A stretch of DNA of 62,086 bases, counting the filler, from Diploschistes diacapsis (Eukaryota), in the NCBI GenBank assembly GCA_023645945.1. It is 6 parts of 6 records of this genome, joined end to end, with 100 filler letters (N's around TTAATTAATTAA, not from the genome) between each part and the next. Parts side by side here need not be neighbours in the genome. Positions count along the whole stretch, not along the records: positions 1 to 10,277 come from JALAIB010000942.1; 5 more parts are not named here. One strand, given 5' to 3'. A program made the position numbers and the translations under genes. This document shows, in pieces, positions 1-51,849 of the stretch. Below the pieces are notes generated by a model that saw only the letters and a list, made by a program, of their open reading frames with translations, searched no databases and had not been told where the DNA came from. Each line of letters begins with the position of its first letter. Position 1 is the first letter of the stretch.

Positions 1-78
1 TTACTACCATATGTGATTTGATTGCATAATATATTTAAATTGTTTAGCTACAGATTTACAAATAAAAAGTATTCCGCC

Positions 79-326
79 AAGTCTTTTCGGACTTAGGGCT
101 TAATTCCGTAGTGAAACCACAACGCAGTCACATGATCCTCACGTGACTCACAGAGGGCCATATTGTGGTTTCGCTATATATATCAGTTTAGTTCAATACT
201 GGCAGAATCCAGTATTGTTGGTCTTTTGGCTATGTGGCCTAGCGGTACTAAACTGGCGCTTTGTAATATCACAATATTGTGATAAAGCGCCAGTTTAGTC
301 GAAACCCTTTCTCGTAACGAGAGAAA
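79..326. repeat. Cluster of inverted repeats / palindromes (five or more hairpins in ~250 bp)
   Basis: Stems: 108-122 with 163-177 (GTAGTGAAACCACAA / TTGTGGTTTCGCTAT, two G.T wobbles), enclosing 126-135 with 139-148; 194-202 with 209-217 (perfect 9 bp); 247-262 with 284-299 (perfect 16 bp), enclosing the perfect palindrome ATCACAATATTGTGAT at 268-283; 310-315 with 317-322; 79-84 with 89-94. Confidence 0.85.
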
Positions 327-633
327 ATTTCATAGCAGCATCAAACAGAAAAGCCAGCATCCCAGCAGCTTCCACCAAACAAAGAGGCCTTGTCATGGTA
401 GGTAGAGATATCCTGCGCAATGGCATTGTTCAAGTACAACAAGTCAACTCAAATATGCGAAGTGTACGGGAAGGAATAACTCGCATTTTGGATATAAGGT
501 GGCATTCGATACCCTGCTACTTCTTATTTCTGACACCACGCCGACCTCAGTCTGCTATAGCACTCAGGCCATCCTCCAGGTCCTGGTTCCCTCTCCAAGC
601 TGAAATCTACTAGGTCGCGGTGCTTGCCCAGCG

Positions 634-1353
634 ATGCACTATCTGGAGCGTATCCGCAAAAGGAAGCATCTGCCGTTTGCTTACCCCCACTGCCTGTCAG
701 AGAGGACGTACGACGCGGCTTGCTTCGAATGCGGAACCTTCTTAGACCGTGAATGTATCCCGGAAATGCGTGCTGAAGACGAACCAGATATATTTGTGTA
801 TCTGGTTAAAGACGGCCTGGAACTGCGTTCCATAACCTTTCCAAGTGGGAAGGTTCTCGATATCATTCACCCGGTTTTCTGCTCCATGTGTTATTACCTC
901 CAGCGTTTGCCTCCTTATGATCCACATATCAATACGAAGACGGACTATTTTCCGTCCACCCGCCGGATCGAATCCTGGAAGATCAAAGGTAAAGCCCGAG
1001 TGATGACTTCTTGGGAGAAGTGGTACCTCGGGATTAAGCCAGAAGCGGGTCGTCGTCGCGCTTTACCTTCACCTGACGATGATGCCTTCATTCTTGAGAA
1101 GTTTGAGCCGGACCCAGCTTTCCTTATGTCCTTTTTGGGAGAACTCAATCCGCCTATAACACCTTATTCTCCTGCGAAGCCTTGTTCGCTTGTCGCGATC
1201 CAGCAATCTTTAGATTCCACGCGAGTACCCCGCTTGTTGGAAGCTCATTCAAATGACTACAACGGTGTCAATTCTAACTTCAAGGGCCAGTTGGTAGAGA
1301 GGATTGTCTCTGAGCTGGGTCGGGGTCCTATCGGAAGTGGAACTCTAACCTGA
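634..1353 (+). CDS. Uncharacterised putative zinc-binding protein, array member 1 (5' exon structure uncertain)
   Basis: 239-aa ORF with DAACFECGTFLD ... FCSMCYY ... WKIKGKARVMTSWEK, in the same motif order and spacing as downstream members. Confidence 0.65.
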   Translation: MHYLERIRKRKHLPFAYPHCLSERTYDAACFECGTFLDRECIPEMRAEDEPDIFVYLVKDGLELRSITFPSGKVLDIIHPVFCSMCYYLQRLPPYDPHINTKTDYFPSTRRIESWKIKGKARVMTSWEKWYLGIKPEAGRRRALPSPDDDAFILEKFEPDPAFLMSFLGELNPPITPYSPAKPCSLVAIQQSLDSTRVPRLLEAHSNDYNGVNSNFKGQLVERIVSELGRGPIGSGTLT

Positions 1354-1682
1354 GTAGCCGGGACGTTGACCAAAGCAAGCAATCTCTGTGCTCAGATCTG
1401 GTCAAACCCATCGTAGGTGTTTACCTCTCCATTTCATAGATGTTAGAAACAGACTTGTTGAAGCTTAGCGAGAGGTATTGTAGCTTGCAGTCAATCTATT
1501 CACTTGAATCCCACAAAACTCGACTCGTCATGTGCAATATATCAGGAAACTATGTCATGAATGACTTTACTCATCTTCATGAGCAACATTATTCCATGGT
1601 TTTGTCACCCTGATAAACTTATAAACGTGACTCACTGATAGCCTTCGAGGCTACAATTACTATCGAGCTGTCGCCAACAGCC

Positions 1683-2888
1683 ATGATACCCTATCGGGAG
1701 AAGAAATCGCCATATGATGCAGGCCCTGACAATCGCAATGAGCCTGACCAGTTGCGCCGTCATCATTTCCCGCGCCTCGATAGCTATGAGCGGTGCAGGT
1801 CAAACAGCGATATCAGCGACAGGCCGTTACCTCCCCCAAATCTAAACGGTCAAGAGCTTAACCGGTCTTCGAGCACGAGTCAGCGTCAGCGCAGCAATAC
1901 GTACGACTGGTCTCCCGCAGCAACTCATGGCGGCACAAACCATCAGCACGTTAGGTTTACAGCCTCTCCAATCATGAGCCCGTCGATGCCGAATGAAAGC
2001 TCTTCCAGGGATCGCTATATTCCTCGTCTTCCAGATAGCCGCTCTACTGCGGCAACGTACGGTGGCTCCACAGGCCCCCAGTCTCGTTATATGCCTCCGA
2101 ATGCAATTACAACCCACAATTCGCCTCCTCCCAAGACAAACGCCAGCTGCTTCAAAAAAGATGCTTACTGTCCGAGGTAGATAAGATTTCCTTGTTGTCG
2201 GCATTCTACGTTCCGAGATGGAACTAACAAGATCCCAAGGTGCCTTTTCTGGTTGGATCTGACTTGGGTCGAAGCCGAGTCGATTATCAGAAATGTTCGC
2301 CTGAAAGACACCCATCACTTCGGTCTTGATAAGCAGGGGTTGGATAAGGAAGGCCATCTTCGGGTATATGCTCATATTCAATCTTGCCGGGACCGTGTAC
2401 TGAGCTTTTGTCCAAGGTGAACAAAAAATGCTGTCCTATATGTGATCGCGAAAGAAATATTGTTCAGACCTCGCGGACCGCCCAAGACCAGGATATTCGC
2501 ATGAAGCAGTTGGAACGGATTCTTTACAAAGTAGGTTCATGGACCAACGGTAATGAGGGATTCAACACTAAAGGCAAGACAGTGGGCCTATGGAGGGCTC
2601 ATTCGTGGTATGAATAGGGAGACTAGGCGTGCCAAGGAGTCGATGATGCCACTTGGTAATGTCTTCGCTCTACCCATGGTCCAACATAGTCGCTAATAGC
2701 GCTATTAGAAGAACTTGATCCGTGCCTAGCAGAAGACTCCGGTCACGTCGTAGGTGAGCATTCTCCTAAACATCCATATGAGCATAGACGTCTATACTAA
2801 GCTCAAAGTAGAGCAGAAACGATCGCTCGCCAAGCAGGTTGCACATAAGACTCGAGATATGGGCCTGATGCCCAATACGTGGCAAGCA
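1683..2888 (+). CDS. Multi-exon uncharacterised putative zinc-binding protein, array member 2 (Ser/Pro-rich N-terminus; 3' end uncertain)
   Basis: Predicted GT-AG introns 2177-2239 (CTAAC branch), 2364-2416 and 2531-2582 splice in frame to give DAYCPRCLFWLDL ... KKCCPICDRE ... ILYKWAYGGLIRGMNRE. Further short GT-AG introns follow near 2656-2708 and 2754-2811. Confidence 0.6.
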
Positions 2889-3310
2889 GTAAGTGAACGT
2901 ATCTCAACCGTTGATCGCGGCCCTTTAAGCTGAGGCTATACAAGATTACCTTCGGCTTGCTAGTGACTTCGGAGCTCTTGTCGCACATATAACTGCCACC
3001 GACAGTCACATTCTCGACAGTTGCAGCTTCATTATCCGCGCTTAGGAGTTGGCTGTCACATCTAATAGTACAATGCGATTGAGAGGTCTCGGAAGAAGTC
3101 TTGCGAACCCTTTGTCCGGCACAATGAATGCTTGGAACCGCCTCTGTTTGGACAATGGGATGCAGGGTAGCAAAGACATTCACGTGCAGTAAATGTCATT
3201 ATTCTCCGGTCTATAATTAGTCTGCAGGTTCTCGTATTCTTAGATATCATCAAACTGCAATCTACTGACTGCATAGCTAACCACAGACCCAAGATCTCCA
3301 CACAATCAAG

Positions 3311-4045
3311 ATGTGCCACCTCGTCACCGGCGTTGGTCTCCCGAAAGGGGAAACACTGCCATTGCAAAAACCCGTCATACTCGAGTGCCATAACTCGCCC
3401 CATGGTCTGGGGGGCGCCGAAAGCTTCCGTATCATCCAAGACGTTCCTTGGGTGCTCAAGGTTGTTCTCCTAGAGGAGATCTGGAAGAGCCTTAAGGTGA
3501 AGGGGGAATCTGCGGCGTGGCATACTTCGTACTTGGAAACCCTCATCCAAGCGCACAAGAACCTCAAGGTAGAAGCTGATTACGTCGCGCAACATGGGAC
3601 TACCGACCCTCATTGGATGCTCCACGTTCAAAGATTGATCTCTCCAGATTGTGGGGCGGGAATCGAGCTACCTGAGGGCCTCCAGATGGTGATCAGCCCG
3701 TTACGTGCCATCCATACCGAGGAAAAGAGCAGCATCGACTTGATGTATTCCGAGTACAAGATGACTGGGGGTAAGAAAGGCCCACAAGGCCGCTATAATC
3801 AGTCGCTCGTATCAAGGACCATCTGGAAAGATTGTATCTATGCTCAAGGCCCCGAGAAATCGAGACTCACGACGACGTTGAAGATTAGAGGCGAGGATGG
3901 CGCCTTCCAAGTGCAAGTTGGTAAGTTTGCTTTCGGGCCTTCGTGGGGTACTTGCGGTAGGATTCGTCTCTTGACAGAAGCGCTTGATCCTGTGCTTCTG
4001 CAGCAGACACAGGTAAATGGATCAACTTCCGTACTGACAACATGA
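3311..4045 (+). CDS. Hypothetical protein (possibly the 3' exon of the gene starting at 1683)
   Basis: 244-aa ORF with globular-like composition, co-oriented with the array; no motif recognised. Confidence 0.4.
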   Translation: MCHLVTGVGLPKGETLPLQKPVILECHNSPHGLGGAESFRIIQDVPWVLKVVLLEEIWKSLKVKGESAAWHTSYLETLIQAHKNLKVEADYVAQHGTTDPHWMLHVQRLISPDCGAGIELPEGLQMVISPLRAIHTEEKSSIDLMYSEYKMTGGKKGPQGRYNQSLVSRTIWKDCIYAQGPEKSRLTTTLKIRGEDGAFQVQVGKFAFGPSWGTCGRIRLLTEALDPVLLQQTQVNGSTSVLTT

Positions 4046-4400
4046 AGGCCCAGGTAAGTAGTATAGTTTTCAGGGTTATGGTGTAATAGCGATCTGTTTT
4101 TGATAAAAGACTTGCAAGACCCTTGCCAGGACTATTCGATCGCGCTTTCCTCTCATGTTGCTTCAGAGCCTGATAAGGCCGAGAACTATGTACCTGCACT
4201 CTGCACTTCAAAACACTCGAAAAACCCTTCGTTGTTCTGTGTTCTATGGGCTCAAGTCCCAAAGATAATCTATTTGTTTTACTGTCCTGAATCCTTGCCA
4301 CAATCCTGTTATTCTCTCACGGTTATATCTGGTCACATTATTCGAGTCATTTCTATGTCATCTTAGGTTCTCAACTCATCACGCTTGCCACTCATTCTAG

Positions 4401-5081
4401 ATGATTCCACATCGCTCAGAGTCGCTTCGACAAACCGAAATGGGCTCACGCAATTCCAAAGAGTCGTCTACTGACTCTGGTGATACCTACAGTGAGAAGC
4501 TACTCGGACAACGATTGACGAGCCAGTCAACCAACGGTAGAGTGGAAAGGGGTCCAGAAGAGCTGCCCCTAGGTATAGCGGGTCAGGCCACGCGTCTTCA
4601 ACGCACTCGGCATCAACAGCAGGCGAGCACTTCGACTGCTGCTTCTTCTACAGCCTCCACCTCACCTACGTCCCCAGCTCAATCCAATTCTCTTGCTCCC
4701 CTGTCAACCGAAACAAACCGAATCCACTACTGCACCACCTGCCATCACAAGATCGCATCTTCCCTTTTCGAAGCTCGTCTGGACAAGGCTCGTCGCTCTC
4801 ATCGACGCTCTCACGACCCCTATTGGGCTTATTCCCATATTCCAGAAAACCTCAAAGGCACGAAATACCAAAGCTGGCTCAAGATAAACAACGAGGAGTG
4901 TCCCTTGTGTGAAGCGATCTTGAGGAAGATGTACGCCAACTCGAGCTATAAGGACGGACTATGGGCTAGAGATGAAGTGAAGAAGATGGAGAAGGATGGG
5001 CTGGTGGAGCTGATGACACCAGAAGAGAAAGCGGTGCTGGAAGACCCGAGGGGTAGCAAGTGGAACAACAAAGCTTGGTAA
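4401..5081 (+). CDS. Uncharacterised putative zinc-binding protein, array member 3
   Basis: Ser/Thr-rich N-terminus, then IHYCTTCHHKI ... EECPLCEAIL ... KDGLVELMTPEEK. Confidence 0.65.
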   Translation: MIPHRSESLRQTEMGSRNSKESSTDSGDTYSEKLLGQRLTSQSTNGRVERGPEELPLGIAGQATRLQRTRHQQQASTSTAASSTASTSPTSPAQSNSLAPLSTETNRIHYCTTCHHKIASSLFEARLDKARRSHRRSHDPYWAYSHIPENLKGTKYQSWLKINNEECPLCEAILRKMYANSSYKDGLWARDEVKKMEKDGLVELMTPEEKAVLEDPRGSKWNNKAW

Positions 5082-5775
5082 GGAGGAAATTGATGGGGGA
5101 TGAAATGAGTAGAAGATGTAGAGGATTCGCGCTGTGTGCTTGATCAAGATTAAGCGCTCCTTCAGGCTTCCGTTGCTGCTACGGATGATTTTGCATACAT
5201 GTACTACTAGCATGCACTAATAAACAACATGCTCATGCTCATGCTTTTTCTTTTTCTTTTTCCTTTTTCAAATCTTGTATTTGTCACCTGCTTGAGAACT
5301 TCTTTATAATAGTGATAAGTTATCATCGCGCAAATTTTATTCGCTTGTTTCGCGTCGCTCGACTGGGAAATACAGCATATCACATCCCCAAATGGAAATG
5401 ACTCGGCATAGCATTTCTTCTTCGAACGCCAGAAAGATGCTGATGAACAAGTTAAGACGATGCACGAATGCTATATCATCATGCCTGAAGAGATGCAACA
5501 CATTCTTTGTTCTTTTCCTTTCAAGGTCGAGAAAGAGATCATTCACATCCACATCCCCAGCGCCGAGTACCCTACAATGACTATACAACGAAGCGTCAGC
5601 ATCCTTTGTCTACCGAGTCATTATGAGCGAAGCTGATGCGCGACAACCAGCTCGGACAACTGTCTTATCCTTCTCCTCCCCCCCTATAATAAGTCTCCGC
5701 ATTCTCTCACACACATTTTACTCGGACTACCTGAAGCGGACTTTGCATCCACGAAAATCAGCTCTTGCAGACCAA

Positions 5776-6321
5776 ATGGCTCCCGACATCGTCCCTCCAA
5801 GCCAGGCCTCGAAGAACCCCACCTTTCTGCACGACTACATCAGCTGCCACGACCGCTGCCGCTTCTGGATCGACCTCTCCCAGCTCGAGAGCGCGCTCGT
5901 CATCGTCGGCCTCCCCGAGCAGCCCGCGGAACCGGAGGCGCACCACGGCCGCTGGAGCCGCCACAGGGTCCTGGTCCTGCCCGGCTGCCCCATCTGTAGG
6001 TACACGGCTATGCTCGACGCGGCCGAGGAAGGGGGTAACTTTTCCAGGGTTGGAGAGATCTTGGAGCTGCTGAGGTCGTTCGACGGGGAGGGGGTCAAGT
6101 TTGCGCGGATGATGACGGCGCAGGAGGAGAGGGTTGTTCTTGGCGAGGAGGGGGTCCAGGCGTATTGGGACTGGCTGGAGGAGCACGAGGAGCGGTACAG
6201 AGAGGATTATGAGAGGGTGAGGGAGGGGAGGGAGAGCATGGTTAGGAGGCTGGAGGAGGAGGAGGAGAGGGCGGTTAGGGGGGAGTCTAGGACGAGGAGT
6301 GTGGAGGGTGAGCCTTGTTAG
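5776..6321 (+). CDS. Uncharacterised putative zinc-binding protein, array member 4 (acidic/Arg-rich helical tail)
   Basis: SCHDRCRFWIDL ... GCPICRY ... GVKFARMMTAQEE. Strong G/C third-position bias. TATA-like TATAATAA near 5685 favours the ATG at 5776; the ORF track starts at 5623. Confidence 0.7.
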   Translation: MAPDIVPPSQASKNPTFLHDYISCHDRCRFWIDLSQLESALVIVGLPEQPAEPEAHHGRWSRHRVLVLPGCPICRYTAMLDAAEEGGNFSRVGEILELLRSFDGEGVKFARMMTAQEERVVLGEEGVQAYWDWLEEHEERYREDYERVREGRESMVRRLEEEEERAVRGESRTRSVEGEPC

Positions 6322-6804
6322 TGTGGGCTTCAGGCCGGGCTGGCGGAGAGTGGTGAGATGCATGCTTTTGGGAGGTATAATGCATGTATAGGAGAAAAGA
6401 GGATGGATTAAATTTCATACGTGCATCTTGAGGATGTATTGACTACATATGCTCAGTGGCGTGACGTGTGGCATGACAGCACTATCTGTATACAATAAGG
6501 GCAGTTGAGGGAAAGCGAGTTCCAGGTTGAGTCACTGATTTCTCTTAATTCACGCGCAAATGAGCCATGATTTTTTGCAAGAGATAGCCACGAGGGCTGT
6601 GACGAAGAAGCTGGTATTCTCTTTGTTTTTTGTGGTTATTTTCCTGCTTATAAGAAGACCACTTCCGCGATTGGCAGACTCCTATTCTCAAACACCTTGG
6701 TTTCATTTACCTTAATATGATCCTATTTGGGTACACGTTTCCGCTTGAGGACTGTTTTGTTCGTCCTTCAATAAAGCCCCTTTTGCGCAGACGCTCCTAT
6801 CGTT

Positions 6805-7320
6805 GTGTTCTATCGAAAAAGTTCAGTTCTGCTATGCCACCAAGAGAGCATCAACAACGAAGCTCGGACGAAGGACATTTACACTTCAATCCAAATAGCC
6901 TTTGAGCATTCGCACTGTTATTTCCACTGGCCCTGTAAGTGCTGGATCGACACTAGAAAACTCGCAATCGAACTCAAGGACAAAGACCTCGAAGTCACCA
7001 AAATAGGTAAATTCTCTTTTCTGCAATGGCACGAATGGCTTGAGGTTGAGCAAGACGAAAAAAGCTACTGTCCCTTGTGCCAGATACGCCAGTGGGTAAA
7101 AGATGCTGCTTGGGCAGACGAAACTTCATCTCGGGGGAGTGAAAATGGCACACGCGTTTTTCGAATAATATACGAATCCTACTGCAGAAACGGAATGGCC
7201 AGAAAGATGACGTGGGAAGAAGAACAACTGCAGATATCACAACACAGGCAGCCGGAGTTGGCACCTTTTGTGCAGGCTGGCGAGAAGGATCGCGACTTTA
7301 CTTCCCGAAAATGTCCCTAG
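6805..7320 (+). CDS. Uncharacterised putative zinc-binding protein, array member 5 (5' end uncertain, possibly frameshifted)
   Basis: FHWPCKCWIDT ... SYCPLCQIR ... RNGMARKMTWEEE. No in-frame ATG upstream of the motifs; the ATG at 6834 (MPPREH...) would join through a 1-nt frameshift near 6900. Confidence 0.6.
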   Translation: MFYRKSSVLLCHQESINNEARTKDIYTSIQIAFEHSHCYFHWPCKCWIDTRKLAIELKDKDLEVTKIGKFSFLQWHEWLEVEQDEKSYCPLCQIRQWVKDAAWADETSSRGSENGTRVFRIIYESYCRNGMARKMTWEEEQLQISQHRQPELAPFVQAGEKDRDFTSRKCP

Positions 7321-7623
7321 ATAGTCATCTATATCATGGAGACTCACAAATCGTCTTTTCATCTACCATACTTGACGTGCACATTATGACAAGAGCATGT
7401 GAAATTTCTAGTTCCTATGCCAGCTATAAGACGACTGCTTCTTCCTTGTAGCCTCTGGCCTTGGTAAGTAACTTCGTCCTAAGCCTATCACTCTACCAAG
7501 TCTTCACATGATGGCTAAGACATTTTCTAGAGATAAGATACGTTCCATTCAGACCTCTATTAACTCGACTCTCTCTGCTCTTCCAAAAAAGATCCACCAC
7601 ACGCTCCTTGAGCTCAATCTACG

Positions 7624-7990
7624 ATGCCACCGGCGGAAAACGACTCATACAAGGCATACCACTAAACTTGCAGGTTCTGAATCGCCACAAAGAACTTCGA
7701 TGGCATCAGGGCTGAGAGCGAGCCTACCCACTGGATGCGAGAATTTTCCAATCATACAAGCATTGATACCAGATCCTGTATATGGATGAGCTCGCATGTC
7801 TAACATGTAGAGTTACAAAGCTCACCACCAACGCAGAAGAATTCCTCACAGAAGTCAAAAGGTTTGGTGGAAAAGAGACGACCGAGCAGGCGGGTTGAAG
7901 GGACTGAGTCAATGGCCATAACATCTTGACATGACCTTCACCGAGGCTTCAATAATTGCAGCCATGCTTCTTGTTGAGTCAAAGGGGGAA
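7624..7990 (+). pseudogene. Degenerate array member 6
   Basis: From ATG 7624 it reads MPPAENDSYKAYH*TCRF*IA (TAA 7663, TGA 7678 at the conserved W position). After frameshifts: LACLTCRV (7791-7814) and LDMTFTE (MT at 7931). Confidence 0.55.
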
Positions 7991-8141
7991 GTATTTGATT
8001 GCGAGTACTGTGCTTGCCTATCATCTTTCCTGAAACAACCCCTTCCAACCTCACAATACCTCTGATGCCTGCCTCTCGTCTTCATACTCTGCACACGTAA
8101 CAGCCAATCTTCTCCAAGTCTGCGAACCAGTTCACTCATAT

Positions 8142-8750
8142 ATGCCGTCTGACACCACCGTTGAGAAAGAATGCATATGCAAAGAACCATCCCCTTTTGT
8201 GTCGCTGCTTCTACTACTATGAAGGCTCAGTAGTGTAACATTAATCGATACGAATATTGGGGTCGCGAAGCCCACACCGGTATTCTTACCCAAGAAAGAG
8301 CCTCCCCGACAAATTGCCAAGATTATGTGCCTTTACCCAAAGTGGGATAGATGCGAAGGCTAGCAGCCAGTGGAATTACAGAAGCTATCTAAAGTCAAAG
8401 AATGCCGCATTTGCCCGGTGCTGGACGAGCTGGACAGGATCCAGTCCGAGACCAAGAAAACTTCGCACGACCTGGAATGCCACGAGAGCTGCGAGGAGAC
8501 TAATAGATTGCCACGAGAGCAGCAGGAGACTAATAGATCAGTATACGACAAATTGACGTGGCTGCGGTGAGACTACAGCGCTAAACCGGTGGATCTGGAG
8601 ACCAAGGTTCTACTCAAAGGGGAGGGGAAATGGTTGAAGGAGCAGTTCAAGAAGATCCAGAAAGAGACCGGCGCTCGCCCGGGTCCCGATGGCTTTAAAT
8701 TCAATAGCCGTGAAAGACTGTGGAGATGCTGCAAAGTTTGTAGTGCCTGA
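8142..8750 (+). pseudogene. Cys-rich pseudogene, possible divergent array member 7
   Basis: Single frame from ATG 8142 to TGA 8748-8750 with three premature stops (8220, 8361, 8568); contains WDRCEG*, ECRICPVL and LWRCCKVC. Confidence 0.45.
8478..8538 (+). repeat. ~30-bp near-perfect tandem duplication
   Basis: TGCCACGAGAGCTGCGAGGAGACTAATAGAT followed by TGCCACGAGAGCAGCAGGAGACTAATAGAT. Confidence 0.85.
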
Positions 8751-9884
8751 CCCGAAGAACGAGAATACTATGTCACCTGACGAACCTCTCCCTCGTGTTT
8801 ACCGTGGCGAGGATAAGTGATCATGTTAGATCAGTCTTACTAACAAATTCTAGCTCGTTGATGCTTGACGAAGAGAGATATCGATGATTAGATACTTGAG
8901 AAAGACATATTACCGCGGGAAAGCCGGCAGAAACAAGAGCCCGAAGGTAGGACTGTGGTATCCTTCGATGAAAGCTGACTACCTTCCTCGAAGTGCACTC
9001 TGAATATCAAGCGAACACTCATTGCTATGTGTGGTTAGAGGGATAGCTTTGGCGATTGCGTCCTTGAATGCTTACTTGCTTACCTGCCTAGCTTTAAGTG
9101 CAATCAGAAACGATTACCACCTATTTCTCGCCTCGTTGTCTGAGACTTTGCTACCTCACTATGCTGGCCTCGCCGATGGCAACGTCTCCCACCGCTGCCC
9201 TGACTTTGAATCCGGCTATCCTCACAATACCAAAAACGCTTTCCTTCATCAACCAGCCACCGTCCCGAGTGCGCATATCATACCTATGGATCTTTAGAGC
9301 CCAGTGCTCCGATACTGGAAACTCTCCATAGATTTCACCATCACTACCCCCCAATATCTTCAGCACAACCAACAACACACACAATCGACCCCGCATCTAA
9401 GAAAACCGCCAATCATCAAACCTACATCCCCAAGTACGGGATTTCCAGTTTCCCCTAACTCCCAATTTCCCCCCTTCTCTACCTACCGCCCCACCGCAAA
9501 CCATACGAAAAAGGGGTAAATTCAAGTAATACCTTTTTCGGGACTAGATAGCATCTTAGCGCTCTTTCTTTCCGCACCTAGTTTTTCATTTCTTGGCACA
9601 TTTCCCAAAGGCCGCATGCATGATCGTAGTATATCCATCCACCCATCCACCCATCCATCCATCCACCTACCCAGCAAAAAAAAAGGCAGAAGGGCCTCCA
9701 GAAGCGGCCCCCGGTTCTCAATGCAGCTGTTTCCCCGTGTATCATTACCGGCGAGGTTCGAGGAGGGGGAAAAAAAAGCGGAATGTCCTCTGATGCGCTG
9801 CGTTACCGAAACTCGCAACTCGCCTGCCTTGTGACGGAGGCTTGGGAAGGATGTTTACCTGTTTTGCCTGCCCCGTGCAGGTTG

Positions 9885-9916
<32 letters not shown>

Positions 9917-10277
9917 GGGGGCGTGGGCCCGGCGGCCCATGGGCACGTGCTGCTAGGGGGTTAGCCTGGCATGTATCCATACATACATAGCCCCGAGGGG
10001 CTCTCGGTGGGACAATTTGGTCCCCAATCTATTATCTCCCCCTCCTTCTACCGTTTTTTCTATACACCGAGGAGGGTTGATCCCGAAACCATCATGCGGC
10101 GAGTTTTCTCTGGGTAGTAGCTTTTGTATGTTTTGATAACAACACAGCGTATGCCAGACCATAGTCGTCTTCGACAATGATCCCGGAAAATCGTTTTCCA
10201 CATCCCCACTCATACTATATACAAGAAAACCCCCCCTGATCCTTTAACAGAACCTCAGTCCTCCAAACTACTTCCCC

Positions 10278-10377
10278 NNNNNNNNNNNNNNNNNNNNNNN
10301 NNNNNNNNNNNNNNNNNNNNNTTAATTAATTAANNNNNNNNNNNNNNNNNNNNNNNNNNNNNNNNNNNNNNNNNNNN
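10278..10377. other. Artificial assembly linker / gap (N44-TTAATTAATTAA-N44)
   Basis: Exactly 100 bp with a central all-frame stop linker. Confidence 0.98.
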
Positions 10378-12579: not shown

Positions 12580-14197
12580 CTATGATATCTCCGAGTTGGG
12601 ACCGATGATGCCGATACCGGGGGAGGCACCGTTGACGGGGCTGCCGCTCGAGGCATCGCTGTCGAATTCTTGCCGGTGGGGGCACTGGGATTGACAAAGC
12701 TTGTCAGGTTGCAGTTGAACTACCTATCATTCACGAAAAATAGCGCCACGACTCCCTGGAAGAAGCCTTCGAATAGGTCTAGGTTATTGTACACGGTCGG
12801 CTGCAACTGGTTAGGTGCTGTATCGAAGATGTTCGAGAACGAAGCAGCCAATCTCAGCAGGAGTCTTGTCCGAAAGTCAACACCAAGAAGGGGCCAAATT
12901 GTCAAGGCCTTCGTTTCCGCTGAGCTGTCGGTGGGTGTTAAGGAACATATCGCCAGCTTCCCCGAAGGCGAAAGGAAGACTGAAGGTCGTTCCGCGACGG
13001 AATCAGTTCTCAGGGAGTGTTTCATTCAGGAAGAAAGGTGCGACGTTGGCATAATTCGCAGTGTTTTCGGTAGTGCCGTTGCAAGGCTAGCGTAGACGAA
13101 AACCCGTTCCGCATGGGATACTTATAGCTATGGTCAGATAGAGGACGGGAAATGCCAAGAATTTACTGACCCGCAAACTAGGATTCGTGGCGCGAGAGAT
13201 GTCGTAGCGGTAGCCCTGGCAGTGGATTCAGTAACTATTCGGGAATGTGAGGGTTCTGGGTTTACATTGTCATGCACCTGCGTCTCAAATTCGAACAATC
13301 CGCCATACTGGTTGCTAATGTTCACGTATTCGTTCCAGCGTTGCAGAAGGAACTGAGTCTTCTTCCAAGTCTTAAAGTCACAGTTTGGTCACTTACGTTG
13401 GCGTTGTTCCCGAAATAGGTGTCTTGGTGGGTAATACTGCCATCAATTTCGAAGACGCCATGCTTGTCGAGGCCCAAGGCAGGGCCGATGGTATTTGGAA
13501 CCCTGGCGTCGGCTCTTCTGATGAAAATACTTGCCCCTGATGAGGTCACCACCCGGCTAGCAGGCCGAGGGCGGACAAGAAGACCGATAATCCATATCTG
13601 AAGCCGTGTCCGGTTTGGATACCATTGGCAGCTTCTGCGAAACTTGTGATCTGTGGCGGCTAAAGTCGTATTGGGTCGGAACAGAAGGTTCACTAACGCC
13701 ATCGCTAGACAGATAGCCACTGAGATCAGCTTGATAGTGTAAGAGCGGAAGACTTGGACGCACTGATTAGCCAAAGTTTTCAAGGTGGGACAGATGCCCC
13801 TTTGATCCGTAGGCCCTGGCGCTTGAAATTGATGGTTAGGGTCCTCGCCCGGGATCAATTTCAGTCCTTGCGGCTGAGGAGTAGGAAGTTCGATACCGGC
13901 CGAAGCCCCCGTGAGCGGCCGGAGGCTGCCGTTCAAGAGACCACCACCAAAGGGGAGGGGGAATAACTGCCTTGAGTCGAGTCGCTTGGTCTGAGCCTCA
14001 TGCTTGGCTTCGGCCTCTCGGCGACGCTGGTCGTGGAATAGCTTCTCAGCTACTTATGGGTCTCTTTTAACAACATCGAACTTGGCAGCGCCGCCCTCGC
14101 TCAAGACTCCTGCACGCCGCAGGAGCGAGTGGAAGCAGGCAGCGCCATATGCCTGGCTTAAAAGAGCTGCGCTAGATACCAGTGTGAGGAGCTTCAT
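12580..14197 (-). pseudogene. Heme-thiolate peroxidase (chloroperoxidase / unspecific peroxygenase, Peroxidase_2 family) pseudogene
   Basis: Signal-peptide-like MKLLTLVSSAALLSQAYG; HQFQAPGPTDQRGICPTLKTLAN(H) resembles the proximal Cys (PCP) motif; GLDKHGVFEIDGSITHQDTYFG resembles the E-x-D-x-S motif. In-frame TAA at 14054-14056 and further frameshifts and stops. Confidence 0.8.
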
Positions 14198-20649: not shown

Positions 20650-20749
20650 NNNNNNNNNNNNNNNNNNNNNNNNNNNNNNNNNNNNNNNNNNNNTTAATTA
20701 ATTAANNNNNNNNNNNNNNNNNNNNNNNNNNNNNNNNNNNNNNNNNNNN
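20650..20749. other. Artificial assembly linker / gap
   Basis: N44-TTAATTAATTAA-N44. Confidence 0.98.
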
Positions 20750-31020: not shown

Positions 31021-31120
31021 NNNNNNNNNNNNNNNNNNNNNNNNNNNNNNNNNNNNNNNNNNNNTTAATTAATTAANNNNNNNNNNNNNNNNNNNNNNNN
31101 NNNNNNNNNNNNNNNNNNNN
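31021..31120. other. Artificial assembly linker / gap
   Basis: N44-TTAATTAATTAA-N44. Confidence 0.98.
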
Positions 31121-41385: not shown

Positions 41386-41485
41386 NNNNNNNNNNNNNNN
41401 NNNNNNNNNNNNNNNNNNNNNNNNNNNNNTTAATTAATTAANNNNNNNNNNNNNNNNNNNNNNNNNNNNNNNNNNNNNNNNNNNN
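41386..41485. other. Artificial assembly linker / gap
   Basis: N44-TTAATTAATTAA-N44. Confidence 0.98.
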
Positions 41486-42173: not shown

Positions 42174-44051
42174 TCAAAAGTACGCTCCCCCCAACACCGA
42201 CGCCAAATAGCGCTCTGCAGGCAGTCCATTTGCCTGGCGCCAGAACGCCCACTCCCGGTATCCCAAGCTGCTCATGAACACGGCCACCGCACAAACACCC
42301 AAAGTCACCGCCATCGCCAACATGCCCATGTCGCCCCACTCGTCATCCGTCCATCCATGGCGGCTCTCGTGAGCTGGTAGGGGTGCGGGGGTTGCTTCAT
42401 TGCCCTTATCATTGTCCTTTCCGTCGTCGGCTTCATCTTCGTCTTCGTCTTCGTCTTCTGCTTCTGGTACTTCCGCAACCCCAAGCATGTAATCTTCTAG
42501 CTCTGAGAGCTGCTCTGTCTTTTCCTGGAGCGCCTCGGTTACGCCGTCGTAGTGGAGGATCTGGCTCTTCAGCTCCTCGTTCTCCGTTTTCAATTCCTCG
42601 ACCCGCTCAGTCTTCTTCTGAAGCTGGCCGGTGAGGTCTTCGTTCTCCGCCTTCAATCCCTCGATTTGGAATCTGTTCTCCTGTGCCTCTGTCTCCAATC
42701 CTTCAACTACTTCAGTCAGCTCTTTCTTGAGCTCAGAGTCCAGGCTACGCCTTTCTGTAGGCGAGTCTGGGCTGTCGGGCAAAGTGAGACTTTCGAGTAT
42801 CATATCTCGAACTGGTGTGCCAAGGCCATTGATTTGGGTCTCTAGCTCAAAGATTCTTTGATCTTTCACGCGGTTGTCTCGCTCTAGGCTGTCGTTCTTC
42901 GACATGAGAGTGTAGCATTGGTGTTTCAAGCGTGGTGTGAGTTCGTTCTTCTGTGCTTGATCAGAGGTGTTGTTGCCGCTGCTGCGAGGGTAATCCTGCA
43001 TCGCGAGATGATCATCGAGGTCTCGGGTGAGTTCCTGCAGCTCGTTTCTGAACTCTGTGTAGTGGCCTACTAAGACGGTGTTTTGTTCGTGATAGCGTCT
43101 GTTCTCTTCCTGTAGCCTTGCAACTTTCTTCTGGGATAGGTCGAAGTTTCTCTTCAATCCGACGTTGAAGTCGACAAACTGACTGTTCTCAAGCTCGGCG
43201 TCGCGAAGGCGACCCTTCAAGTCGGCAATCTTGACCTCCTTGTTTCCGCGTAACTCTCTCATGTGAGTTTGCGTTAAACTGTCATTCTCACTTCTGCTTG
43301 CAGCCAACTGCCGCTGCAAGTCCTGTTCATTTGCTCGGCATTTCACCAATGCGTTGTTGAGCTCATCTTCCTTCTTATGCAAGCCATCCACCTGCTCTTC
43401 CATATATTTGACCCACGATTCGCGTCCTTCCTCCGCCTCCGTCTTCTTCGCGATGTCTACATTCAGGAGGTCTATCTTCTCGATATGTGTCTCCAACGCT
43501 TTCTGTAAGATTTTCACCTGGACGTCTTTTCTGTCCAATTTCTGTTCGAGTCCCTCGATCACGATTTCGCTCCCGCCATCTGAAATAGACTTTTCTGATG
43601 AAGCTACGGAAGGTTCTGGAGAGCGCTGCCAGGCCACGATAGTGACGCGAGCTAGCTCGGAGAATAGCTGGAGTCCTTCCACGAAAGCCTGCTCGATTTC
43701 TTTCTTCAGCATATCGATGAGTTCTTGACTCGGTACTGTGTCCGGGTAGTTGAATAAAAGCTCTAGCTGTGCGATATTTTCATTACGTTTATCGAGCCAG
43801 GGTGTGAGCATGCCGATGACTTCGCATCCTTTGGGAACATCCTTGATGTTGGGGGCAACGGCATTGACTTGCTCTCTTGCATGCTGGATGTACCCTTTGA
43901 ATTGGGCGAATACTTCCTGAGATGGCAGAAGACTGTCAGCGAGCTCGAGCTTCTTCTGCAGCTCCTCGATCTGCTGTGATCTTGATTGGTTGCCCGAAGA
44001 CGTGAATACTAGTGAGGAGTCCATGACTCCTGCTGGTTCGATGTGAACCAA
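42174..44051 (-). CDS. Long coiled-coil protein with C-terminal transmembrane anchor
   Basis: 625-aa intronless ORF rich in E/K/L/Q heptads; acidic stretch; hydrophobic GMLAMAVTLGVCAVAVFMSSLGY near the C-terminus. Confidence 0.8.
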   Translation of the reverse strand: MVHIEPAGVMDSSLVFTSSGNQSRSQQIEELQKKLELADSLLPSQEVFAQFKGYIQHAREQVNAVAPNIKDVPKGCEVIGMLTPWLDKRNENIAQLELLFNYPDTVPSQELIDMLKKEIEQAFVEGLQLFSELARVTIVAWQRSPEPSVASSEKSISDGGSEIVIEGLEQKLDRKDVQVKILQKALETHIEKIDLLNVDIAKKTEAEEGRESWVKYMEEQVDGLHKKEDELNNALVKCRANEQDLQRQLAASRSENDSLTQTHMRELRGNKEVKIADLKGRLRDAELENSQFVDFNVGLKRNFDLSQKKVARLQEENRRYHEQNTVLVGHYTEFRNELQELTRDLDDHLAMQDYPRSSGNNTSDQAQKNELTPRLKHQCYTLMSKNDSLERDNRVKDQRIFELETQINGLGTPVRDMILESLTLPDSPDSPTERRSLDSELKKELTEVVEGLETEAQENRFQIEGLKAENEDLTGQLQKKTERVEELKTENEELKSQILHYDGVTEALQEKTEQLSELEDYMLGVAEVPEAEDEDEDEDEADDGKDNDKGNEATPAPLPAHESRHGWTDDEWGDMGMLAMAVTLGVCAVAVFMSSLGYREWAFWRQANGLPAERYLASVLGGAYF

Positions 44052-44959
44052 ACGTTGAGACTACGTGTCAAGCGAGGAAAGAAGCAGTTTGCAAGTAGTA
44101 CTTGACGATGAAGCGAAACAAGCTATTCACAAAGCAGTTGCAACGCTGATAGTTGTGGAAGTTACACAGTGGAAAGTGATGATGGAAGTGGTGGAGGAAA
44201 GAAAGAGAAAAACAATGGGGAAGAAACTTCTGGTGGGTTATTGTACGTGTGCACGCGAGTCAAAGGGGTCGTTCCTTAAAGGGGTCGTTCCTTCTTAAAA
44301 AAGGATATACCACGACGGATCCGGTGCTGGAGCAACTCTTCGCCTCTTGACAATACACGGAGACTGCAACACCGAATGACCGACAACTTGAAGATAGCAT
44401 TGGTAGACTAGAAACACTGGATACAATATCTATGCAAATCCAAACCGTAGTCTTCGAATTGATACACGATCACACTATCTGAAGAGGTAAGGGAGAAGAG
44501 ATACTCTGACAAAGAGAGCAGTAGCAACAGAACTACCGTCAGTACTTAACTACTAACCGAGTATCTATGGAACTCATCTGCTGCTTTGACAACTTCCTCT
44601 GACTTCTTCTAGGCTCACCTGCGTCAATGCATTGGTCGCGGGTAAAAGCCAGTTACATACTTCCTAACTTAAAGATTGATGAAGTTGAATACCTTAGCGC
44701 TATATTGTAGAAAGATGTTACGGAGTTCAAGTTAATCCGCCTACCCAAAGCAGCCCTTGATCCTCTTCAGCCCTATACTCGCCGCCCGAGGGGGGATGTA
44801 GGTAGTGGGCTTATATGAGTTACAACAACACCAACAGCTTGAAAGCTAGGACCAGAAAGCCTGCCGCCCTGTCAATGGGTATGCAAGGGTGCGCAGGCTC
44901 ATTGACATCCTCATAGCTTCAACCGTCGCCCATTGCAGCTATACTGCCACCTTCCAGCT

Positions 44960-51749: not shown

Positions 51750-51849
51750 NNNNNNNNNNNNNNNNNNNNNNNNNNNNNNNNNNNNNNNNNNNNTTAATTA
51801 ATTAANNNNNNNNNNNNNNNNNNNNNNNNNNNNNNNNNNNNNNNNNNNN
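51750..51849. other. Artificial assembly linker / gap
   Basis: N44-TTAATTAATTAA-N44. Confidence 0.98.

Follow-up and report, generated by a model that had tools for sequence, protein, structure and literature searches.

A tandem array of extremely diverged paralogues with a putative zinc-binding core in the lichen-forming fungus Diploschistes diacapsis

Introduction

Lineage-specific, tandemly duplicated orphan gene families are a general phenomenon in filamentous ascomycetes. Small metal-binding domains of the treble-clef and zinc-knuckle type, a fold class of the Krishna–Majumdar–Grishin classification, place four Cys or His ligands in two pairs. The THAP domain (PF05485), essentially an animal domain, has the pattern C-x2-4-C-x35-53-C-x2-H and a C-terminal AVPTIF box. 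A C-P-x-C motif between a strand and a helix is the active-site context of the thioredoxin fold.

The gene array described here resembles each of these in part. Like the orphan families of filamentous ascomycetes, it is co-oriented, clustered and highly diverged, carries disordered tails and is without homologues outside its lineage in searches that are blind at the divergence of its second gene; it differs from them in a defined four-ligand motif of fixed spacing that survives the divergence. Its core shares with treble-clef and zinc-knuckle fingers a small domain with two ligand pairs, the first at a predicted β-hairpin turn and the second in the opening turn of a predicted helix, whereas the 42–52 aa between its pairs are far above the typical distance and no sequence or fold match connects them. 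In spacing the core resembles THAP, which also has an unusually long stretch between pairs, a length of ~90–110 aa and a strand–helix–strand arrangement predicted around the site. The last THAP ligand is His, however, while that of the core is Cys in all five members; there is no AVPTIF-like box and no Pfam match at E ≤ 10, and a THAP zinc finger was rejected.

Results

Setting and extent of the array

The analysed stretch of DNA (hereafter the window; 62,086 nucleotides) joins six unrelated contigs of ~10.3 kb with N spacers between them, and its first piece (1–10277) bears the gene array. The host, Diploschistes diacapsis, is a lichen-forming ascomycete of the Lecanoromycetes, a poorly sampled fungal class; one named cluster member comes from a metagenome-assembled genome of this species. 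Five co-oriented plus-strand genes, g1 to g5, occupy positions 634–7320 and have three motif blocks in common. A preliminary description had counted six to seven co-oriented genes, with one or two pseudogenised copies at 7400–8750; the five genes stand, but the extra copies are unsupported. On the plus strand of 7400..8750 we found no supported copy: a six-frame scan with a hidden Markov model of the core came back empty, and the CxxC strings scattered there in different frames (7797, 8000, 8403 and 8730, with one MSPDE at 8770) do not have the spacing of the family. The best match in this region was a weak one, to an ORF at 8364–8567 (E 2.7, in one leave-one-out run).

The absence of housekeeping genes noted earlier holds for the piece 1–10277, where none of 54 six-frame ORFs has a Pfam domain (E ≤ 0.01; HET, NACHT, kinase and nuclease domains all absent), but not for the other five contigs, on which Set2, RabGAP, aminotransferase and similar genes were found. 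Because the window consists of joined unrelated contigs, the claim is limited to the first of them. We also looked for a RIP signature and saw none.

Conserved blocks in five diverged genes

All motif strings quoted in the preliminary description were recovered on the plus strand, in the same order and at similar spacing in five of five genes. Block A, a [C/H]xxC pair, lies at 721 (g1), 2169 (g2, resuming at 2240 after an intron), 4731 (g3), 5848 (g4) and 6925 (g5). It had been described as CxxC throughout, which is correct for g1, g2 and g3, whereas the pair is H-x2-C in g4 and g5. Block B, C[PS]xC, follows at 880, 2432, 4899, 5986 and 7069, respectively, and the methionine of block C, MTxxE, at 1003, 2610 (degenerate, MNRE), 5013, 6112 and 7207. 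From g1 to g5, the distance between blocks A and B is 49, 45, 52, 42 and 44 aa, and that from block B to the methionine is 37, 41, 34, 38 and 42 aa. Every member thus has four ligand positions in two x2-spaced pairs, C/H-x2-C and C-[PS]-x-C, 42–52 aa apart.

The motifs are largely confined to the array. In a six-frame translation of the whole 62 kb, all four matches to G.{1,4}[RKEL].MT..E fall inside g1, g3, g4 and g5; of the 17 listed C[PS].C matches in the same translation, five are CP[IL]C, four of them in g2–g5. The core shared by the genes spans ~110 aa, and overall identity is only ~20–30%, while the four ligand positions survive in all five.

The genes surrounding these cores differ considerably. 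The 239-aa ORF of g1 (634..1353, plus strand) has an ATG start and contains CFEC at 721, CSMC at 880 and GKARVMTSWE at 988–1017, followed by a C-terminal tail of 111 aa unrelated to the others; an identical protein is present in NCBI nr. The second gene, g2 (1683..2696, plus strand), is spliced and encodes ~284 aa from exons at 1683–2176, 2240–2363, 2417–2530 and 2574–2696. Its first intron (2177–2239, 63 nt) splits block A and has canonical fungal splice signals (GTAGAT...CTAAC...AG), its second (2364–2416, 53 nt) is canonical-looking, and its third (2531–2573, 43 nt) is doubtful. CPIC lies at 2432, and the degenerate block C (GLIRGMNRE) is reached only through the third intron. The 160-aa N-terminus of g2 is rich in Ser, Pro and Thr.

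Between g2 and g3 lies a co-oriented, motif-free ORF of 244 aa (3311..4045, plus strand), which does not belong to the family. It is joined to g3 via a 388-nt intron (4013–4400) in the public gene model P0008 (460 aa). This ORF gave z 2.9 against the g2 N-terminus, the highest value among 21 flank pairs tested, and no likeness to any other flank; the flanks are unrelated, as had been stated.

The 226-aa ORF of g3 (4401..5081, plus strand) has an ATG start, and its first residues, MIPHR, resemble the MIPYR of g2. Its N-terminus is disordered and rich in Ser, Thr and Gln; CTTC at 4731, CPLC at 4899 and GLVELMTPEE at 4998–5027 follow, and the protein ends 17 aa past the block C motif. The fourth gene, g4 (5623..6321, plus strand; 232-aa ORF, ATG start), carries CHDRC (H-x2-C) at 5845–5859, CPIC at 5986 and the block C sequence GVKFARMMTAQE at 6091–6126, followed by a helical tail that is acidic and charged. 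At 0.76, its GC3 exceeds the 0.50–0.55 of the other members, and NCBI nr holds an identical protein.

The last gene, g5 (6775..7320, plus strand), is an ORF running from stop to stop, given as 171 aa when counted from a GTG at 6805, with HWPC at 6925, CPLC at 7069 and GMARKMTWEE at 7192–7221. Its first in-frame ATG, at 7195, is past blocks A and B, and the nearest upstream ATGs (6717 and 6834) are out of frame. The missing ATG reflects either a lost start, a frameshift or an assembly indel; a lost start would fit gene death. The protein is absent from the NCBI annotation, and its sole source is a Logan-assembly gene call.

Kinship of the members

Smith–Waterman comparisons against 500 shuffles connect g2 with g4 (z 7.7, 0/500), g3 with g5 (z 5.65, 0/500), g2 with g3 (z 4.1, 1/500), g4 with g5 (z 3.8, 2/500) and g2 with g5 (z 3.3, 3/500). 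When each member was left out of the profile in turn, its score was reached by none of 2,000 shuffles for g2 (13.8 bits) and g4 (10.6 bits), by 15 for g3, 36 for g5 and 384 for g1. In an initial leave-one-out run against 1,324 window ORFs, only g4 was recovered as top non-training match (E 0.11), and g1, g3 and g5 were outside the first nine. At the level of sequence comparison, the kinship of g2–g5 is beyond chance.

This does not extend to g1, which fails both alignment (z 1.56 in its best pair) and profile. Its ordered pattern C..C / C..C / MT..E arose in 2 of 200,000 shuffles, and 11 of 22 block C residues are shared with g5. g1 belongs to the family by these ordered motifs only, as its most diverged member. 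Taken together, the sequence comparisons support g1–g5 as a genuine family of paralogues that lie in one orientation, have diverged extremely, conserve four ligand positions and are unrelated in their flanks.

We considered it unlikely that the array is decaying or non-functional, or that its ORFs were never expressed, with the shared motifs as leftovers of common descent. The missing start and annotation of g5 would agree with decay, as would the degenerate g2 block C behind its 43-nt intron, the lack of any homologue found, and the low values of both language-model recognition and AlphaFold confidence; the protein language model barely recognises g5 (1362, where 2300 is reached by 91 of 100 known-family proteins). 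Against this, g1, g3, g4 and g5 are still open, intronless ORFs of 171–239 codons, and the first intron of g2 has kept its splice signals. Moreover, ligands and capping-box motif are retained at fixed spacing in all five copies at 20–30% identity and would otherwise have been lost, which argues for purifying selection.

Searches for relatives

From 1.84 billion proteins, a profile search recovered nothing beyond the window's own genes, and divergence at the level of g2 (13.8 bits) is beyond the reach of that search. Pfam, PDB, atlas and metagenome searches gave no significant match. At E ≤ 10, the five cores touched seven Pfam families, each by one of the five members (best E 0.035), and PDB sequences gave no match. 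Searches by fold, with query models of low confidence, were also without a match (Foldseek best E 1.6; VIA best Z 4.3).

Two observations bear on how these results are to be read. An unrelated 628-aa ORF from another piece of the window also returned only itself, and because of this the organism appears to be without a close sequenced relative. Furthermore, a left-out true member obtains just 5–14 bits from a profile of its own paralogues, so the lack of a homologue among billions of proteins says little about novelty. The suggestion of a candidate undescribed family is accordingly upheld in part: no Pfam or PDB match contradicts it, but the searches are blind to members as diverged as g2.

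The same blindness leaves some room for a very diverged branch of a described zinc-finger family with widely spaced pairs (THAP-like C2-C2/CH, another treble-clef or a zinc ribbon), which we judge improbable to about the same degree as decay. The pair spacing lies within the THAP range of 35–53, and single members weakly touch zinc-finger models, none significantly (zf_Tbcl_2, Zn_ribbon_NrdR, Rad50_zn_hook and Zf_2nd_IFT121; E 0.057–0.21). That no two members touch the same Pfam family even at E ≤ 10, that the PDB is silent and that no fold match stands out all count against such a branch.

Predicted structure of the core

Two AlphaFold models were obtained, both of low confidence (mean pLDDT 51 and, for g5, 59, with some 10-residue blocks of the g5 model at 71–79). 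In both, block A forms a strand or hairpin, CPxC leads directly into a helix, and block C comprises a short strand and a helix; the g5 model sets its H and C ligands on either side of the hairpin turn. On these models, the first pair, [C/H]-x2-C, would sit at a β-hairpin turn and the second, C-[P/S]-x-C, at the start of a helix. We infer that both pairs may together bind a single structural zinc ion, much as in a treble clef. Besides this site, there would be two helices, one short strand and a further helix that begins with an S/T-x-x-E capping box (MTxxE), and the complete domain could act as a small module for binding protein or nucleic acid on freely changing disordered or charged tails.

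CPxC, which follows a hydrophobic strand and precedes a helix, could instead be a redox-active dithiol of glutaredoxin- or thioredoxin-fold-like thiol-disulfide oxidoreductases with no metal site, a reading to which we give little credence. It draws on the local context shared with these enzymes, strand–C-P-x-C–helix, which in g4 (…VLVLPG-CPIC-helix) and g5 (…KSY-CPLC-helix) resembles a thioredoxin-fold active site. The cis-Pro expected ~35–40 aa downstream is, however, absent in four of five members, only g3 having a Pro after the conserved Thr (MTP); neither AlphaFold model predicts a strand between two helices after CPxC; and a thioredoxin fold has no use for the additional conserved [C/H]xxC pair upstream. 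With no Glutaredoxin or Thioredoxin Pfam match at E ≤ 10, this fold was rejected.

Discussion

On balance, we lean towards a tandem family that is restricted to its lineage and diverges fast, made up of five small proteins that are not secreted and have one structural zinc site each. The earlier proposal of expansion by tandem duplication is retained: local duplication followed by divergence is supported as the simplest origin of the co-oriented, diverged paralogues g1–g5. The array would have arisen by local duplication and then diverged rapidly, and g5 may by now be on its way to gene death.

An intracellular role is more likely than secretion. A crude Kyte–Doolittle scan, our only secretion check, gave no signal-peptide-like N-terminus in any of the five proteins (over the first 35 aa, the hydrophobicity of 10-residue segments peaks at 1.42 in g4 and at no more than 0.83 in the others), and none has a membrane-spanning hydrophobic stretch. 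By that scan, secreted effectors were rejected, as was an HET/NLR-type locus by the 0/54 contig ORFs with any Pfam domain. The array had been called typical of loci for non-self recognition, effectors or meiotic drive under birth-and-death evolution, a reading that is highly improbable. In its favour is the overall picture of co-oriented tandem paralogues that have diverged extremely, whose tails vary and one of which may be dead. It is unsupported because there are no signal-peptide-like N-termini and no HET or NACHT domains, nor are there membrane-spanning segments in the five proteins, kinase or nuclease domains on the contig, or RIP.

A more ambitious version of the preferred reading, that of a lineage-restricted zinc-site family, is a long shot. 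Here the core, [C/H]xxC – 42–52 aa – CPxC – ~35–40 aa – G..AR.MTxxE, would be a truly new zinc-binding domain, born and expanded in the lichen-forming lineage, in which selection keeps the ligands while the rest diversifies; this would be the mark of a family engaged in recognition or conflict, with a possible link to symbiosis.

For searches of this kind, the array carries a caution: an empty search of a billion proteins is a weak argument for novelty when a profile of paralogues gives 5–14 bits. As it stands, the array is an ordinary orphan gene cluster, and it makes a testable prediction of one zinc ion per core. Should the family prove real and be expressed, it would contribute a small metal-binding domain without described relatives, and would provide a compact case of tandem duplicates in the Lecanoromycetes diverging down to a bare ligand skeleton.

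A compact array of co-oriented genes

The array comprises five plus-strand genes, g1 to g5, all lying within piece 1 of the window (1–10277). Four are intronless: g1 (634–1353, 239 aa), g3 (4401–5081, 226 aa), g4 (5623–6321, 232 aa) and g5 (listed as 6805–7320, 171 aa). By contrast, g2, starting at 1683, is spliced. Its first intron (2177–2239, 63 nt) carries GTAGAT…CTAAC…AG signals and interrupts block A between YCPR and CLFWLD, and removal of the second (2364–2416, 53 nt) brings the frame back into CCPIC. Block C of g2 (GLIRGMNRE) is in frame only if 2531–2573 is also spliced out; otherwise the frame stops at 2617 and block C is missed. This putative intron of 43 nt is short by fungal standards.

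The six pieces of the window measure 10,277, 10,272, 10,271, 10,265, 10,264 and 10,237 bases and are divided by spacers of N44, TTAATTAATTAA and N44 (10278–10377, 20650–20749, 31021–31120, 41386–41485 and 51750–51849; ten N runs in the window). They are accordingly distinct contigs of a single assembly, ordered from longest to shortest, and two of the lengths (10,277 and 10,264) agree with those that the protein database gives for the contigs of window proteins. The window is no single chromosome stretch, and genes from one piece do not adjoin those from another. D. diacapsis is an ascomycete that forms lichens, and Pfam matches typical of a fungal nuclear genome were obtained for 10 of 15 long ORFs scanned, a set in which 3281–4045 and 13322–14053 have no bearing on the question of housekeeping genes. 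Matches on the other pieces include Set2 SET/AWS/SRI domains, a DIL domain, a LON-RING protein, an Atg3/10-like domain, RabGAP-TBC, a class-III aminotransferase and Ytp1. On piece 1, none of the 54 six-frame ORFs of at least 70 aa gave a Pfam match at E ≤ 0.01. The preliminary description had stated that the contig carries no housekeeping gene, which is true of the 10.3-kb piece 1 only and not of the window.

Shared motifs and homology

Every motif string quoted in that description is present, and both ligands and spacing are conserved. In g1 to g5, respectively, block B follows the second ligand of block A at a distance of 49, 45, 52, 42 and 44 aa, and the Met of block C follows block B at 37, 41, 34, 38 and 42 aa. 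Block A had been described as CxxC throughout; in g4 and g5, however, a His stands three residues before the second Cys (CHDRC and HWPC), making the pattern [C/H]-x2-C. At positions +3 to +5 after this Cys, four of the five genes carry an aromatic residue, [LI] and D (FLD, WLD, WID and WID). When all six frames of the window were translated (649 ORFs of at least 50 aa, 59,720 aa), every one of the four matches to G.{1,4}[RKEL].MT..E fell in g1, g3, g4 or g5; of five CP[IL]C matches, four belong to g2–g5 and one to a RING protein on another piece.

Alignment statistics are weaker than the motifs, in keeping with the low overall identity anticipated earlier: BLASTP among the members gave best E values of only 0.01–0.09. 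We compared the five cores (~110 aa each, spanning all three blocks) pairwise by Smith–Waterman alignment against 500 shuffles. The score was reached by no shuffle for g2–g4 (z = 7.7) and g3–g5 (z = 5.65), by one for g2–g3 (z = 4.1), two for g4–g5 (z = 3.8), three for g2–g5 (z = 3.3) and 12 for g3–g4 (z = 2.2), while g1 against any other member gave z ≤ 1.56, with at least 46 shuffles reaching the score. Leave-one-out profiles, each built without the member tested and scored against 2,000 shuffles of the omitted protein, gave 13.8 bits for g2 and 10.6 bits for g4 (0/2,000 each), 5.0 bits for g3 (15/2,000), 5.1 bits for g5 (36/2,000) and −1.0 bits for g1 (384/2,000). Among 1,324 window ORFs, only g4 was regained as the top non-training match (E = 0.11); g2 exons, themselves untrained, ranked first among non-training matches in the leave-one-out runs without g1 (E = 0.019) and without g5 (E = 0.035). 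Judged on these comparisons, g2–g5 can be regarded as homologous beyond reasonable doubt.

The relaxed ordered pattern of g1 (C..C, 40–55 residues, C..C, 28–45 residues, MT..E) arose in 2 of 200,000 composition-preserving shuffles, a somewhat optimistic figure because the spacing windows were chosen knowing the g1 values. In block C, 11 of 22 residues are identical between g1 and g5. We therefore take g1 to be, very probably, a more diverged family member, for which the motifs alone argue.

Outside the cores the proteins are unrelated, as had been proposed: the best of 21 flank pairs, the g2 N-terminus against the motif-less ORF at 3311–4045, reached z = 2.9. At the DNA level, no repeats between copies were found beyond short chance-like matches. 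The best pairs, g2 with g4 and g3 with g5, might recall duplication of a two-gene unit; we make no such claim because their local alignments cover different blocks. A codon-frame test of the ORFs did not discriminate, since antisense ORFs pass it too. Dinucleotide indices are similar across all six pieces, and we rejected RIP as the cause of divergence: the piece 1 values (TpA/ApT, 0.77; (CpA+TpG)/(ApC+GpT), 1.25), set against RIP thresholds, resemble those of the five other pieces.

Copy number and gene integrity

Six to seven genes had been proposed, including pseudogenized copies. We scanned a six-frame translation, with stops masked, using a profile from the four intronless cores. Apart from the four genes used for training, it matched g2 exon 3 (−1.7 bits) and one chance sequence on another piece; 2700–4400 and 7400–9000 gave no match, although remnants of a single block could escape a scan with the whole core. 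At 7797, 8000, 8403 and 8730 there are CxxC strings, and at 8770 an MSPDE; these lie in differing frames with spacing unlike that of the family. The tandem array is thus upheld at five genes rather than six or seven, and the additional pseudogene copies fall away. Short ORFs at 8257–8570 contain a ~31-nt tandem duplication (8475–8538); further along piece 1 are an ATCC/ACCC microsatellite with an 8-nt period (9633–9676) and, at 9866–9933, a perfect T14/A14 palindrome with GC-rich, partly complementary 31-nt arms (71%).

The ORF at 3311–4045 (244 aa, same orientation, no family motifs) sits between g2 and g3. A public gene model, P0008 (460 aa; 'MAG: hypothetical protein LQ340_005900 [Diploschistes diacapsis]'), whose 90% cluster contains two window ORFs, joins it to g3 through a 388-nt intron (4013–4400). 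We doubt this fusion, which looks like an ab initio artefact, because g3 has its own ATG, at which it shares with g2 the opening MIP[YH]R.

The g5 ORF begins with GTG, and its earliest in-frame ATG, at 7195, lies downstream of blocks A and B. Two upstream ATGs (6717 and 6834) belong to a different frame, and no usable GT…AG was found between them and the domain. Moreover, g5 is absent from the NCBI annotation, its sole record being a prokaryote-style gene call in a Logan assembly. For these reasons, g5 is either a dead or dying copy or carries an assembly indel.

The missing start of g5 and the degenerate block C of g2 are what one would expect if the copies were decaying or non-functional. 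Such decay is unlikely to describe the family: without selection, a sequence turnover of 70–80% would have cost the ligands, and four long ORFs are still open.

Two further features of piece 1 were observed. The GC3 of g4 is 0.76, against 0.50–0.55 in the other four members, and a 201-aa antisense ORF over g4 (5758–6363, minus strand) probably arises from the GAG/GAA-rich sequence that encodes the acidic tail of g4. TGACTCA, which we take to be a Gcn4/AP-1-type bZIP site, has five of its eight window sites on piece 1 (144, 1628, 6528(−), 7905(−) and 7975(−)), the window count being not above chance (9.2 expected). An extended match, ACGTGACTCAC, lies ~490 nt upstream of g1 (141–159) and again ~55 nt upstream of g2 (1625–1643); either a promoter element common to both genes or chance could account for it.

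Searches for relatives

In word-indexed searches of 5.8 billion proteins, g4 (870 candidates scored) and g5 (10 candidates) each found only itself. The four-core profile, run against 1.84 billion representatives, returned g1, g5, g4 and P0004, a 672-aa protein that we rejected as a relative: it is a translated tandem DNA repeat whose E value of 3e-8 came from summing 12 weak stretches, showing that repeat proteins can fake profile matches. The absence of g3 is explained by its 90% cluster being represented by the motif-less ORF 3311–4045. Among JGI metagenome contigs, 596 pattern matches to the g4 and g5 alignment and 594 to g4 alone yielded no confirmed case, and the ESM Atlas gave no usable match for the g4 core or g5. 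A limited literature search on Diploschistes gene families returned nothing relevant, from which we draw nothing about what is in print.

The profile search requires ~35 bits for a match (50 bits gave E = 3e-8), and a true omitted member scores 5–14 bits, so only near-identical sequences could be found and the lack of a homologue has little power. A 628-aa ORF on another piece (42174–44060, minus strand), which has no Pfam domain, likewise found only itself in the word-indexed search; fast-evolving genes of D. diacapsis thus appear to lack detectable database relatives. Given low sensitivity and poor sampling, the label 'orphan' reflects sampling and divergence as much as novelty.

As had been supposed, no described family emerged: at E ≤ 10, every Pfam family touched was matched by at most one of the five members, and PDB sequences gave no match to the profile. 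The same low sensitivity leaves room for the family being a diverged branch of a known zinc finger, to which we give a small probability.

Predicted structure and interpretation

AlphaFold2 models, built on shallow alignments, are of low confidence (pLDDT 50.9 for the g4 core; 59.3 for the g5 core, with 33 of 126 residues at 70–90). In both, block A is modelled as a strand or hairpin, and C-P-x-C opens a helix that is followed by another; in block C, the 'AR' lies in a three-residue strand, and MTxxE starts a further helix. The models differ over the segment preceding CPxC, which is a strand for g4 but helical for g5. Strands 10–13 and 18–21 of the g5 model flank H13…C16, an arrangement that would put the first pair of ligands at the turn of a hairpin, resembling a zinc knuckle. 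In treble-clef fingers, the ligands come from a knuckle and the first turn of a helix, and T-x-x-E preceded by a hydrophobic residue is a usual form of helix capping box. Foldseek with the g4 model gave nothing above noise (best E = 1.6, TM ≤ 0.37), and VIA wide with the g5 model gave no match at Z ≥ 5; its best, a bromodomain helical bundle (Z = 4.3), we treated as meaningless.

The strand–CPxC–helix context also agrees with a redox site of the glutaredoxin type. We consider this quite improbable, as a Pfam match is absent, the cis-Pro is not conserved and the second ligand pair would be left without explanation. The proposal of a recognition, effector or drive locus, which draws on nothing past the general look of the array, is very unlikely.

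Neither a signal-peptide-like N-terminus nor a membrane-spanning segment is present in any of the five proteins. The tails are disordered in g2 and g3, charged and helical in g4, and of another, unrelated kind in g1. Metal, fold and role are inferred: in our best reading, the core would be a small intracellular domain with one putative structural zinc, acting as a binding module beneath variable tails. The array is a genuine and tidy, if ordinary, orphan tandem family from a poorly sampled fungal lineage, and it yields one clear prediction that can be tested, namely that each core binds a single zinc ion.
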